DNA of 64,000 bases, from positions 37,438 to 101,437 of IMG/VR virus record IMGVR_UViG_3300033145_002224. One strand, written 5' to 3'. This DNA comes from a virus. Below the pieces are notes generated by a model, which saw only the letters and a program-made list of their open reading frames with translations, ran no database searches and had not been told where the DNA came from. The position numbers and the translations under genes were made by a program. Of this stretch, positions 32,294 to 37,807 are shown in pieces; within the stretch, counting starts at the first letter, position 1, and the number at the start of each line of letters is the position of its first letter.

Positions 32294-33202
32294 TTAACTC
32301 AGTAACGACGTTGAACTACTTGTACTAGATGAAGTTGAACTAGTTGTACTAGAACTTGTCGAACTACTCGTACTAGAGGTTGTTGAACTACTTGTACTGG
32401 AACTTGTTGAGCTAGACGTATATGTAGTCGAGCTAGAAGTACTAGAACTTGTTGAGCTAGACGTATATGTGGTCGAGCTAGAAGTAGAACTAGAAGTAGA
32501 AGAACTTGTACTGGAGCTTGTTGAGCTAGTAGTAGAGCTAGAGGTTGAGCTAGAAGTACTTGAAGTGGTTGAACTACTTGTACTAGAACTTGTAGAACTA
32601 GAGGTTGTAGTAAATTCTTCGTAGAAGTTAGCATTCCCCATTACAATTTTCCTTGCTTCACTAATCTCAAATAAATGCATTAACATCACATCACCCACAT
32701 CATTAGTACTAAGGTAAATAGGTAATAGTGTTTGTCTTGGAAAATGGCTATAATGAGTTGCCATTCTTCTACCATCGATCCAAAATTCAACTCTATCTAT
32801 CCGCCAACGAATTTCAAAATTAATCGCTCTATTTGTCCAGTCATCCTCCCATGTGATAGTTGTCTCTTCTTGTGCTGTAGCGGTAGCATCACCAGCTGAA
32901 CGTGCGGTAAGATGCCCACCATGTATCCTAAAATGGGCAAAATTACGAGTTGCGTGAGCCCTAGAATATAATCCAAAAATACGTTCATCAATTGCTGCTG
33001 GTGCATTTTCAAGTGTCATTTTAAGTGTCAGATTCCCAAACATCATAAAAAGACTAGTGGTTATAGCACCATCACGTAATCTAATTTTACCATCTATACA
33101 ACTTGGGTCACCAGTTATGATTTTTAACAAATCCTTATCAAAACCATAAATATATGGTTCATATGTAAAATGACCGAAGTCACTTACTGCTTTAGTATCC
33201 AT
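32294..33202 (-). CDS. Concanavalin/GH16-like beta-sandwich protein with C-terminal TSSS tract
   Basis: FEIRW..DRVEFWIDG motif; ~100-aa Ser/Thr tail at about 32300-32610. Confidence 0.7.
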   Translation of the reverse strand: MDTKAVSDFGHFTYEPYIYGFDKDLLKIITGDPSCIDGKIRLRDGAITTSLFMMFGNLTLKMTLENAPAAIDERIFGLYSRAHATRNFAHFRIHGGHLTARSAGDATATAQEETTITWEDDWTNRAINFEIRWRIDRVEFWIDGRRMATHYSHFPRQTLLPIYLSTNDVGDVMLMHLFEISEARKIVMGNANFYEEFTTTSSSTSSSTSSSTTSSTSSSTSSSTTSSTSSSTSSSTSSSTSSSTTYTSSSTSSSTSSSTTYTSSSTSSSTSSSTTSSTSSSTSSSTTSSTSSSTSSSTSLLS

Positions 33203-33207
33203 CTTAT

Positions 33208-33771
33208 TTATTTTTTATCTTCTGGAGTGGCCACTTCTTTAACAGTAGCTTTTTTAGGTTGCGCCTTCTTAGCTGTCCCGCTTGGACTTTTCGCTTTTGG
33301 AGGCGTTTCCTGTGTTTGCTCTTTATTAGTTTCATCTGTTTTTTCTTGATCATTACCTTTTTCAAGGATTTTAGCAAGAATCTTAACAACCTTTTCTTCA
33401 GCCATTTTAGTAGCCATATTTTCCAAGGCTCTCTTGGTTTCAGGCGTAATTTTAATAGCTGATTTAGGATTTAAACTCTTACCAACATGACCATATTTAA
33501 TTTCAGTAATGTCATGCTCAGGCTCTACACCCTTCCTAATATATGGATCTTTAGCGTCTTCATCTTCAGACAAAATAAAATCCATTTTAAAACCAGGGTG
33601 TTTTTGTAAAGCCTCGGCCATTTTCTCATCTTTAACCTTGAGTATGCCATTTTCAAACTTAGCATATACTCCAGAGACAGCAGTCCTGCCCGTTAACGGC
33701 TCAGCAGGAGTGCCAGGTGTAATAACAACGCGAAGATTCGCGTTTTTAGAAATAAATGTGTAATCCTTCAT
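33208..33771 (-). CDS. Hypothetical head-module protein
   Basis: 187 aa with Lys-rich tail; downstream of capsid. Confidence 0.55.
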   Translation of the reverse strand: MKDYTFISKNANLRVVITPGTPAEPLTGRTAVSGVYAKFENGILKVKDEKMAEALQKHPGFKMDFILSEDEDAKDPYIRKGVEPEHDITEIKYGHVGKSLNPKSAIKITPETKRALENMATKMAEEKVVKILAKILEKGNDQEKTDETNKEQTQETPPKAKSPSGTAKKAQPKKATVKEVATPEDKK

Positions 33772-34668: not shown

Positions 34669-37600
34669 TTAGGCAGTTACACCTTTGATCAAAGCACATT
34701 TAGGAGCCTGGATTCTTTGCAGACCACACTCTGTAATATACTCATCAACTTGACCATCTACGTCAGGAGCCTGGATGTTGGTCCGAAGCTTGGTGTCCCG
34801 ATTAGTTATGTACCGATATTTAAAGCAGTCCATGTCTAATAGGAAACCATATCCTGAGTAGTCTTCTACGAATAGCGGGTTGTGAATAAGGTTAATTTTC
34901 CCAAATGGGGTAACATATTCACCAATCTGCATGCCATAACTTCTTGCTAAAGGTTTCATTTGAATTTGACCTCTAGCGAATTCGTTAATAGCCTGCAAAA
35001 CCACACCACCACAGAATAATGTTTTTGTAGTGTCACCGTAAGTGAAACCTTCTCTAAGGAATGTGTTGAAGTCAGGAGCTGTTAACACACCACCTTGACT
35101 TTGAACATAAGAACCACCAGCATCGATGAATTCAAGTACGCCACCAGTAGCACGCCGAGGATGACCTTGGGTACCATTAGTGTCTGACTTTTTTTCACCC
35201 CACCAGAAAGCACGTTCAATCAAATTTGTTACTACTCACTATACTGTGAGCGGACCGATCATTTCTGCCGATCTCTGTATGTCGCCATACAGTTCAGACT
35301 ATATCACTTTCCATTAACGAATCTTCCATTACTATCTCTTTTTCGCTTCTTGGCGAAAACCGATACCTTTTCTTTATTCTCCTTCGTTCTTGGAATACCT
35401 CGTATAGTCGTTGAACCTGGAAATAAACTTTTATATTTTTCTATTCTATCCTGTTTTCTTTTTATATTAAAATACAGGCCATTAGCAATAAACGATTTCT
35501 TATTTATCCCAAATCTAGCAAATATCTTACCACTTTTCAGTTTTTCTTTCGTTATTTTACCAACCTGAATCCCTTTCTCTAACATGATTTTATGCAACTC
35601 ATATAACCATGTATCAGCAGCGCCTATACCTATCCTCATATCAAATACTTCATGCGAATTAACCATATGCCATCTACACATAGCAACCCAACCCTCACTA
35701 TCTAATAATCCAGAGAAAAATTCTAATTTATGAGAACGTTCCCATTCATTAAAATCAATTGGAATATTTTTTCTTCCTATCGTTTCTTCTAATAACCACT
35801 TATTCATTTTAACATCTGATAAAGTAACAAAATATACCTTTCTTTTTGCGCTAGTTAATCTTTTGGCAATTCCAATTGTTACTTTATTATCAGACAATTT
35901 TCTTAATGAGTTTGCGGTTTTAATTACAAAATCCTCATCTATTGCTTGTAATATAAAAGTTCTTTTATTTTTTGAGATGTGACCATCTCCTAAATAAACG
36001 CCTAAAATATAAGACGTAGCTTTAGTTTTATTGTACATATTTCCTTGGAAGCGGATTGTCTCCACTGACAACTTGTTGCTCTTGGGCATTGTCAGATACT
36101 GAGAGTTTCCCGCAATTTAGAGATATTTACCTATATCATTACTGATATAGGGGACATTGATCTATCCAGAGCGTGCTCGGTTCCTTTTTTGGCACGGAGA
36201 TAAGGAAGTTCCTTACCACCATAGAGTTTAAGTTCTCTTTCAGTGCCAGATACTGCGATTGAAGTCCGGAAAATTTGAGTATAATTACTTTCTTTCGAAC
36301 TCCGGGTTGTGTTCACGTTGCGTGCACCAGCATTTTCCTCATTTACATTACCAACGATGTAAAGACCATCGCCATCAGCCATAGCGGCCTCAGCTGTGGT
36401 ACCAAAACCACGATCATTTGCACCAATAGTAAGTGAACTAACACCTGCGATAGCATTTACTCTAAAGTTTTCACCAGTTCTTGCGTTCTTTACAACATCA
36501 CCAGGGGTGAAGATGTAACCTGAACTAGAACCAGCTCCAGATACTGTTAGAGTAATTGCACCAGTCGCGTGAGCGCCAGTTACTTTTGCATAACGTCCGC
36601 CATAAAAATCTTCGAACCAAGAAAATTCGGGATTATTAGCAGAATTTTTCATCATGCTTGAACCTTTCCAAACTCCATCAGCATATGTTTTACCTACATT
36701 TGTAAGTAAAGATACTAATGGATGCTTGTTAGCAAATTTTGTTACTACTCAAATCGAGCGGTTGAATCATTTCTGTTCAACTCTATATGTCTCCATATAG
36801 ATCGGACTATATCATCATCCCGTAGGATGCATAACCTTTAGTCTCTGAACGTTTCCTAATAATTTCTTTTTTGTACATCTTTTAATATTTCAATTGCTTT
36901 TTTTAGTTTTTTCTGCTTTCTTTCTATCGTAAAGAATAATCCATTGTTAATAAAATCACGAGCATTTATCTTAAATCTAACCATCGTGACAGAACCATTT
37001 TTAGTATAGTCTGGTGGCATTATTTCTGGTTTATTAATTCTAATTTTCAGCTTCTCTAAAAATTTTTTGAATTCCCAGATCCAACCATCAGTTCCCTTAC
37101 CGATACCAATGGTTACCCTAGGATTTATTCTATTCTTATAAACCAATGAAATATAACCATCTCCATCCATTATACCGGCTATAAACCATTTTTTTATAGA
37201 TAAATCTGCATCCCATATAAAATATGGTATATGATGTTTTTTACTAGTTTGAGATTCGAAATAATCTTTATATTTAGTAAAACCAACACCAACACAATAT
37301 TTTGTTATTTGGTTTCCAGAATTAAATCCACTTCCTTCTTGATCGTATTTATTAACATTACCATTACAATTTGGTAATATTTTTTTTAAACACTGCAATG
37401 TAAAAGAAGCAAAATCTTTATCTATAACTTGCAATTGAAATGTACAATTTTTTGTAGGCTTTATTCTACTTGTTATTGATGCATCAGTAAGATACACCCC
37501 AAAAAGATAAGCCAGTTCCTTACTAGGATTCTCGATGCTGATTGACTCTAAACTCATATTTTTACACTTAGGTAATGAATTAATTAAAAAGTTGTTCCAG

Positions 37601-37807
37601 CAATTTGTTATGTTTTATATCCCCACATTACTGTGAGGTAGAGCCTAACGCGAGGGTTCGCTCTAAGAGAAAAATCTTGTCAACAACGTCCACAATCAGT
37701 CTACCCTCGGCAAGGGATACGGCTGTACTACGAGCTCCATTGCTGGAGTCATCGGCAATCGTACCTCTGTCGTGGGTAGGCTCAGTATAATATGGAAATT
37801 GAGCCAT
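34669..37807 (-). CDS. Major capsid protein (SU10/DUF5309-like), 422 aa from 3 exons: 37807-37660, 36732-36164, 35220-34669
   Basis: Exons join in frame (148+569+552=1269 nt): ...KIFLLE-P-NKHPL... and ...EHALD-IERAFWWG...; NYTQIF and YVTPFG motifs; follows scaffold gene. Confidence 0.9.
35221..36163 (-). mobile_element. Group I intron 2 in capsid gene (943 nt)
   Basis: Exon ends GGAU; IGS UCAAU-GUCC gives P10/P1 with U.G; P AAUUGCGGGAA, Q AAUCCGC, R UCAACGACUA, S GAUAUAGUC; terminal G. Confidence 0.92.
35304..36089 (-). CDS. LAGLIDADG homing endonuclease (intron 2)
   Basis: YILGVYLGDG and FFSGLLDSEG motifs. Confidence 0.92.
   Translation of the reverse strand: MPKSNKLSVETIRFQGNMYNKTKATSYILGVYLGDGHISKNKRTFILQAIDEDFVIKTANSLRKLSDNKVTIGIAKRLTSAKRKVYFVTLSDVKMNKWLLEETIGRKNIPIDFNEWERSHKLEFFSGLLDSEGWVAMCRWHMVNSHEVFDMRIGIGAADTWLYELHKIMLEKGIQVGKITKEKLKSGKIFARFGINKKSFIANGLYFNIKRKQDRIEKYKSLFPGSTTIRGIPRTKENKEKVSVFAKKRKRDSNGRFVNGK
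36733..37659 (-). mobile_element. Group I intron 1 in capsid gene (927 nt)
   Basis: IGS GUUAGGCUCUA complementary to the ligated exons; P AAUUGCUGGAA, Q AAUCAGCA, R UCAGAGACUA, S GAUAUAGUCC; terminal G. Confidence 0.92.
36856..37557 (-). CDS. LAGLIDADG homing endonuclease (intron 1)
   Basis: YLFGVYLTDA and FIAGIMDGDG motifs. Confidence 0.92.
   Translation of the reverse strand: MSLESISIENPSKELAYLFGVYLTDASITSRIKPTKNCTFQLQVIDKDFASFTLQCLKKILPNCNGNVNKYDQEGSGFNSGNQITKYCVGVGFTKYKDYFESQTSKKHHIPYFIWDADLSIKKWFIAGIMDGDGYISLVYKNRINPRVTIGIGKGTDGWIWEFKKFLEKLKIRINKPEIMPPDYTKNGSVTMVRFKINARDFINNGLFFTIERKQKKLKKAIEILKDVQKRNY

Follow-up and report, generated by a model that had tools for sequence, protein, structure and literature searches.

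The virus sequence analyzed here carries, in its sole capsid gene, an insertion (intron 1) that is very likely a working, mobile group I intron, in which cleavage would take place after C37660 and in which selection acting at the protein level would keep this C. The intron lies within a 64,000-nt stretch of DNA that was analyzed as a whole and is referred to below as the window. Group I introns almost universally have a U·G wobble at their 5' splice site, a textbook recognition element; members with C·G are rare but accepted. This wobble is the sole conserved group I feature missing from intron 1: the base at position -1, C37660, forms a Watson-Crick pair with G37644.

The capsid gene and the position of the intron 1 junction

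The source record is a 101,437-bp virus genome, rated 100% complete, in which the capsid gene is present in a single copy. The gene encodes an SU10-type major capsid protein (Pfam PF17236) on the minus strand and is composed of three exons and two group I introns (Table 1), the two insertions spanning 927 nt (intron 1) and 943 nt (intron 2) and each harboring a LAGLIDADG-type ORF. Since this is the only copy in the genome, both insertions must leave the mRNA, in line with the claim of an earlier, sequence-only reading of this DNA that capsid synthesis depends on splicing. Protein homologs were identified by searching exon 2 against 1.8 billion representative proteins. One of them, P0001, is a full-length, uninterrupted homolog of 417 aa (61% identical), with residues 1-49 aligning to exon 1 and residues 51-234 to exon 2 (61% identity); P0002 is a lone exon-2-like protein. 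The Pfam SU10_MCP model is matched at positions 31-119 by exon 2 (E 1.8e-13, 51.1 bits) and at positions 120-292 by exon 3 (E 3.2e-27, 96.3 bits), in both cases with a cut-off of 24.1 bits. Positions 119|120 of the model abut exactly at the exon 2-exon 3 junction and hence the second junction is exact. With blastn against phage records, the gene matched only Lysinibacillus phages and Roseobacter phage CRP-7, through 47-nt stretches of the core. A further ORF of the window (32294-33214, minus strand), located downstream of the head genes, terminates in an extended tract of (T/S)SSS repeats and would encode a mucin-like, Ser/Thr-rich virion protein.

Exon 1 ends in ...CUC UUA GAG C, with the final C at 37660, and is followed by the intron 5' end GAACCCUCGCG. 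At the other boundary the intron ends in ...AACAAAAUUUG, with G36733 as its last base, and exon 2 opens with CUAAC; the 3' tail of intron 1, UAGUAACAAAAUUUG, matches the tail UAGUAACAAAUUUG of intron 2. In the window, K-I-F-L-L-E is encoded as far as 37661 and N-K-H-P starts at 36730, and the predicted ligated junction, ...UUAGAGC-CUAACAAG (as a 20-mer, UUAGAGCCUAACAAGCAUCC), reads GAG-CCU-AAC-AAG-CAU-CCA, that is, E-P-N-K-H-P in frame with exon 2. Comparison with intronless capsid homologs, which the sequence-only reading had proposed as a check, returned the same protein: all 13 IMG/VR loci that are intronless at this position (64-71% identical) read DKI(F/M)LLE-P-NKHP, with CCU, CCG or CCA as the Pro codon; P0001 reads ...DKIFLLEPNKHPLV... 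and P0030 is the same there, while P0003 and P0007 retain LLEP. The Pro is invariant in the 13 loci and in P0001, P0003, P0006, P0007 and P0030, and is found in all homologs more than 60% identical; the distant homolog P0010 has Ala (LLDADSHP). The sequence GAG-CCU-AAC can be obtained from the window by one route, which joins C37660 to C36732-U36731. Because the homologs demand Pro and only GAGC + CUAAC supplies it, the -1 base is C, paired with G37644. To judge by these protein alignments, the intron 1 junction is thus fixed by its homologs, independently of the RNA model.

The RNA model places the junction at the same position. The guide GUUAGGCUCUA is the exact reverse complement of the ligated UAGAGC + CUAAC over 11 contiguous nt, its P10 portion (37649-37645) making 5/5 Watson-Crick pairs with exon 2 bases 36732-36728. 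When the first 60 intron bases were shuffled 20,000 times, 0 shuffles yielded an 11-nt complement spanning the junction, the maximum being 10 nt, in 5 cases. The 11 contiguous pairs between guide and junction reported in the sequence-only reading were therefore correct in both coordinates and pairing, as were the restored E-P-N-K-H-P frame and the C of the last exon position with its G partner. In the window P1 stops at the cleavage pair, the next bases being a G opposite a G, and the same is seen in a related intron, L034 (see below); relatives with U·G add two A-U pairs.

A search for other in-phase boundaries led to the rejection of 5' sites after U37666, C37669 and U37672, all of which would delete or change invariant residues, and of 3' sites at G36745, G36748 and G36750, where invariant residues are lost or changed or an in-frame UGA is met. 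Among the in-phase alternatives there is no U-ending 5' site that gives the conserved protein. A separate observation concerns the local fold of the minus strand at 37645-37667, where CUUAG/UUAGG and GCGA-ACCC-UCGC can form a rival structure that would sequester the guide sequence. In RNAfold predictions on an isolated 58-nt 5' piece, the rival hairpin (CUUAG/UUAGG + GCGA/UCGC) reaches -18.4 kcal/mol versus -15.8 kcal/mol for P1, being 2.6 kcal/mol more stable in this isolated piece; it is absent in L034, where P1 is the minimum-energy fold.

The alternative helix raises the question of whether the true 5' site could be a canonical U·G elsewhere, after U37666 paired with G37645 in CUUAG/UUAGG, which on joining to CUAAC would give ...IFL-S-NKHP. 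The phase of this position agrees with a 3' site at G36733, and in the isolated 5' piece the helix belongs to the fold of lowest energy. The reading is nonetheless extremely improbable: Leu-Glu would be lost and Pro changed to Ser in an LLEPNKHP motif that is invariant in 13 loci and 2 library proteins, exon 1 encodes L-L-E precisely to 37661, just 2 exon bases would be paired 5' of the wobble with P10 one base out of register, and L034 lacks such an alternative, its own minimum-energy fold being P1. The chance that ligation joins GAG to GCUAAC is practically negligible. This joining, with cleavage after G37661, an intron ending in U36734 and the product GAGCCUAAC, would read E-A-N-K-H-P; it is in frame, and the Ala of P0010 (LLDADSHP) offers a precedent. 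It would, however, break two rules where the preferred junction breaks one, having a non-G terminal base as well as G at -1, and would disrupt the 11-nt guide complementarity; relatives more than 60% identical all have Pro and the 3' site follows the homologous G of ...AAUUUG in intron 2 and relatives. Cleavage after C37660 and ligation after G36733 thus remain the preferred junction.

Ribozyme core and endonuclease ORF

The positions of the exons, introns and ribozyme elements are listed in Table 1. Because the P2-P9 anatomy is complete, including the P3-P8 pseudoknot, the P4-P6 domain and a P7 with the G-binding G-C pair, and compensatory changes occur in relatives, the membership of intron 1 in group I is well supported. 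For the analysis of core covariation, related introns were gathered via their endonuclease and ten were aligned. Across the aligned introns, 97% of the cells in P7, P8 and P9 are paired and 8/18 pairs show changes on both sides; 0/500 shuffles equaled this result, and slid registers gave 26-44% paired. P9 itself covaries, and compensatory changes among related introns were also found in P2, P3, P4 and P6, those in P6, which encloses most of the ORF, being seen in L034, L042, L037 and L035. Between introns 1 and 2, P9.1 shows compensatory differences as well (GUUGAA/UUCAAC vs GAUCGG/UCGGUC). The group I identity put forward in the sequence-only reading is borne out by these helices, by the R and S elements, by the terminal G and by the compensatory changes in 10 relatives. 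An Rfam search returned no group I match at the gathering threshold or with E up to 10, which is probably due to the 700-nt ORF splitting the core.

Table 1. Capsid exons, introns and ribozyme elements in the window.
Feature	Position	Strand	Details
Capsid exon 1	37660..37807	(-)	ATG 37807-37805; 49 codons plus C37660, first base of the split Pro codon
P1 5' strand UAGAGC	37660..37665	(-)	6/6 Watson-Crick with 37644-37639; predicted 5' splice site between 37660 and 37659
Intron 1	37659..36733	(-)	927 nt
Internal guide sequence GUUAGGCUCUA	37639..37649	(-)	37644-37639, P1; 37649-37645, P10
P2 hairpin CCUCACA-GUAA-UGUGGGG	37621..37638	(-)	7-bp helix; compensatory changes in 10 relatives
P3 5' strand CAUAAC	37607..37612	(-)	pairs with GUUAUG 36835-36830; covaries in relatives
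P4-P5 domain	37536..37602	(-)	A-rich J4/5 and J5/4
P4	37602-37597 with 37541-37536	(-)	UGCUGG with UCAGCA; compensatory pair UGCAAG/UUUGCA in L036
P5	37592-37588 with 37549-37545	(-)	ACUUU with AGAGU
LAGLIDADG-type homing-endonuclease ORF, intron 1	36856..37557	(-)	233 aa plus stop
P6 3' strand UUAUUAGG	36855..36862	(-)	8/8 pairs with CCUAGUAA at 37527-37520
P7/P3'/P8 core	36804..36845	(-)	R element GUUCAGAGACUAAAGG, S element GAUAUAGUCC
P7	G36845 and 36843-36839 with 36809-36804	(-)	G + GACUA with UAGUCC; formed by R and S elements
P8	36829-36816	(-)	CAUCC/GGAUG
Peripheral 3' hairpins	36748..36800	(-)	P9 36800-36783 (GAGA loop), P9.1 36781-36761, P9.2 36758-36748
Intron 1 terminal G (omega G)	36733	(-)	predicted 3' splice site between 36733 and 36732
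Capsid exon 2	36164..36732	(-)	CU finishes the Pro codon, then 189 codons NKHPLV...HALD
Intron 2	35221..36163	(-)	related group I intron; U36164·G36155, omega G35221
LAGLIDADG-type ORF, intron 2	36038..35307	(-)	weak Pfam match, under cut-off
Capsid exon 3	34669..35220	(-)	183 codons plus stop

The ORF of intron 1 starts in the P5 loop, runs through P5', P4' and P6, and has its stop codon within the P6 3' strand. Its match to Pfam LAGLIDADG_3 (E 6.9e-4, 20.3 bits) falls under the cut-off of 22.5; the homolog retains its motifs GVYLTDASI and IAGIMDGDGY, and homologs were found at 13+5 loci. Both intron ORFs of the gene overlap strands of the ribozyme core, that of intron 2 also reading through R, P3' and P8 and stopping at the S element. 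In intron 2, P1 is formed by GGAU/GUCC and P10 by AUUGA/UCAAU, and the U·G pair that the sequence-only reading had ascribed to this intron was located at U36164·G36155.

The P2 18-mer CCUCACAGUAAUGUGGGG (37621-37638) has exact matches in 15 unrelated IMG/VR contigs, where it is followed by a T-run and resembles an intrinsic terminator. All 15 are unrelated hairpin-plus-T-run terminators, and the recurrence is read not as homology but as independent arrival at a stable hairpin with a GUAA loop.

A second C-G intron and relatives at neighboring sites

The relative L034, which stems from a different metagenome, encodes an endonuclease 67-68% identical to that of the window. Its intron has the 5' end ...UUAGAGC|GGAGAGAUUUGGCUCUA-P2 (UUAGAGC|GG...GGCUCUA) and the 3' end ...GGUAAACG|CUAAUAAACAUCC (...AAACG|CUAAU), with insertion point, P1 and C-G pair identical to those of the window. 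The endonuclease tree groups the two with 100/100 support at the tip of a long stem, ~0.5 substitutions per site apart; judging from this tree, the C|CU insertion arose once and then persisted. The C-G lineage comprises the 2 members found here (window and L034), a search of IMG/VR for more with the pattern GGCUCUACC..A.AGUAAUGU having returned 0 matches. The second introns of L040 and L034 (NPEF/KWFED region) are left out of all counts.

Since L034 has diverged and yet shows an identical C-G at an identical position, the C-G site is very probably a functional natural variant, and the same fact argues against sequencing error and recent decay. The sequence-only reading had likewise described a naturally functional variant, and this part of it stands; natural C·G sites in group I introns had been published in 1995. 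The site could alternatively be a defect, with intron 1 decaying or poorly spliced, or with C37660 being an assembly or sequencing error for T. The sequence does come from a metagenome assembly, and three related introns have A for the terminal G, showing that these assemblies do contain unusual bases at splice sites. A defect is nevertheless very unlikely, given that T at 37660 would place Ser where all close homologs have Pro, that the C recurs independently in L034, which shares a long stem with the window in the endonuclease tree, and that the endonuclease ORF, all core helices and the other exons are intact in a single-copy capsid gene.

Other relatives (L038/39, L040, L041, L042, L043 (= L018) and L049/50) carry sister introns inserted 2 nt downstream, at GAA CCU|A..., where ACCU pairs with GGGU and the U·G falls on the freely variable third position of this Pro codon. 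These sister introns resemble intron 1 in harboring a homologous LAGLIDADG ORF (41-44% identity), a P1 loop with the P10 guide, a GUAA-capped P2 and P3-P9, and in targeting Glu-Pro-Asn codons; they differ in being inserted at CCU|AAx with U·G, in contrast to the C|CU insertion with C-G of the window lineage. Closer to the N-terminus, introns occupy a look-alike site, YYTEP|THD (GAACCU|ACA), in L035 and L037, also with U·G, and in L036, with an ambiguity described below, so that ACCU/GGGU with U·G is found in seven Glu-Pro-site introns (L035, L037, L038/39, L040, L041, L042 and L043) and also in L049/50. Elsewhere in capsid genes U·G is likewise present, in window intron 2, in introns b and c of L018 and in both L016 introns.

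Several further observations were made on this intron family. The N-terminal half of the capsid family (L016, L018, L034-L046; window 34669-37807) is an intron hot spot, with at least 6 sites and up to 3 introns per gene; the insertion sites are YYTEP|THD, LLE-P|NKHP (in two registers), PLVTL|LTN, NPEF|KWFED, NYT|QIF and HALD|IERAF. Most of these introns carry LAGLIDADG ORFs and one has a reverse-strand ORF (L018 4506-5309). A single endonuclease/intron family occupies two different sites within this gene (L035-L037 and L048 vs L038-L043). Both sites encode Glu-Pro and contain the motif GAACCU|A(A)CA, a resemblance suggestive of ectopic transposition from one to the other. In L041:2292-2500 and L043:2328-2500, the P10 guide (GUUUAUU / ACUUAUU) can pair with an internal segment (AAUAAGC / GAUAAGU) that lies in a long P2-P3 insert and is reminiscent of an exon 2 mimic; this pairing covaries between L041 and L043. 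Three relatives, L042:2394-3232, L043 (= L018):2328-3207 and L036:2397-3298, apparently have a terminal A instead of G (tails ...CAUAUA|AACAAAC, ...AAAUA|AAUAAG and ...CAGAGA|ACACAU), at junctions that follow from the consensus protein sequence together with guide complementarity over 9-11 nt; their G-binding pair in P7 is unchanged. L049/50, near L043, has a normal terminal G, and in L036 a 1-nt shift of both sites would result in C-G at -1 and a terminal G with the protein unaltered.

A broader and rather unlikely reading is that this capsid-intron family tolerates non-canonical bases at both splice sites, perhaps aided by the long continuous P1+P10 or by a LAGLIDADG maturase, so that introns could shift by 1-2 nt inside a homing site. 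Snapshots of such sliding would be the window and L034 (C-G, 2-nt shift), L036 (1-nt ambiguity) and L042/L043 (terminal A, G-binding pair unchanged).

Predicted splicing at the C-G site and comparison with known introns

In the Tetrahymena ribozyme, docking, rate and fidelity all drop when this position holds C-G, and efficient capsid production via a C-G site is therefore not self-evident. We infer splicing at the C-G site, its rate and the protein-level cause of the C. In the proposed mechanism, the guide would pair with the last six exon 1 bases (P1) and the first five exon 2 bases (P10); an exogenous G would then attack after C37660 in a 6-bp, all-Watson-Crick P1, and the 5-bp P10 would align exon 2, so that ligation after G36733 would restore the codon C|CU. 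Compensation for the C-G could possibly come from the long continuous guide, from the location of the cleavage pair at the helix end, or from the LAGLIDADG protein acting as maturase. Selection on the protein would hold the C in place: a U would restore the wobble but make Ser of the invariant Pro of LLEPNKHP. The usual arrangement is insertion after a synonymous third-position U, whereas the window lineage sits after the first codon position, 2 nt upstream.

A different explanation for the retention of the C, also advanced in the sequence-only reading as a slow-splicing timer, is that the C-G pair is an adaptive brake on the first splicing step, timing or limiting capsid production. In model ribozymes a C-G pair slows the first step, and the pair persists in two diverged phages. 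The Pro codon, however, fully accounts for this persistence, and the same capsid protein is produced by relatives that have no intron here (13 loci) or have a U·G intron displaced by 2 nt, which makes a timing role unneeded; intron 2 of the same gene is canonical, and nothing regulatory was found around the site. A brake is thus highly unlikely, and the timer was set aside, nothing in the sequence or the relatives speaking for it once the C is explained by the Pro codon. Protein-level retention of the C in a functional intron is the reading retained here.

Natural exceptions to U·G show how much flexibility a ribozyme has where the exon base is imposed by the host protein, and an exception in a gene required at hundreds of copies per virion amounts to a natural test of the cost of C-G and of its compensation. 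The system has built-in controls in the canonical intron of the same gene, the sister lineage with U·G at a distance of 2 nt, and relatives lacking the intron. For phage annotation it carries a warning, as splice-site finders demanding U at -1 would mis-join the capsid gene.

Phage group I introns with homing endonucleases include those of T4 td, nrdB and nrdD, of the SPO1 DNA polymerase gene and of staphylococcal phages, and C·G 5' splice sites reportedly occur in fungal mitochondrial cox1 group I introns. Introns in capsid genes are known from Tuc2009 and from mycobacteriophage LittleE, where the intron splices during late expression and the end of exon 1 in U and of the intron in G were regarded by the authors as group I hallmarks (PMC3706429). 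Like intron 1, the T4, SPO1, staphylococcal, Tuc2009 and LittleE introns are of the self-splicing type, carry a homing-endonuclease ORF and reside in an essential phage gene. They differ in that in the described phage introns exon 1 terminates in U (explicitly so for LittleE, PMC3706429), whereas intron 1 has C, and the window capsid gene has two introns, with relatives carrying as many as three, spread over at least six sites. A shallow search of the searchable literature returned no example of a phage group I intron with a C·G 5' splice site.

The title of Hur & Waring (1995, Nucleic Acids Res 23:4466) reports a group I C·G 5' splice site and raises the issue of 'post-translational' selection. 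As far as that title indicates, those introns share with intron 1 a C as last exon base, paired with a guide G in place of U·G, and differ in residing in a mitochondrial respiratory gene rather than in a bacteriophage capsid gene. In the same manner, intron 1 has C at -1, a guide G as its partner and, as the presumable cause of the C, the first base of an invariant Pro codon at this position. Unlike the fungal cox1 introns, intron 1, for which splicing is predicted here, is of the compact bacterial/phage type with P9.1 and P9.2. Phage capsid-gene group I introns and C·G sites are both known already, and what intron 1 adds is a C-G case in a phage capsid gene.
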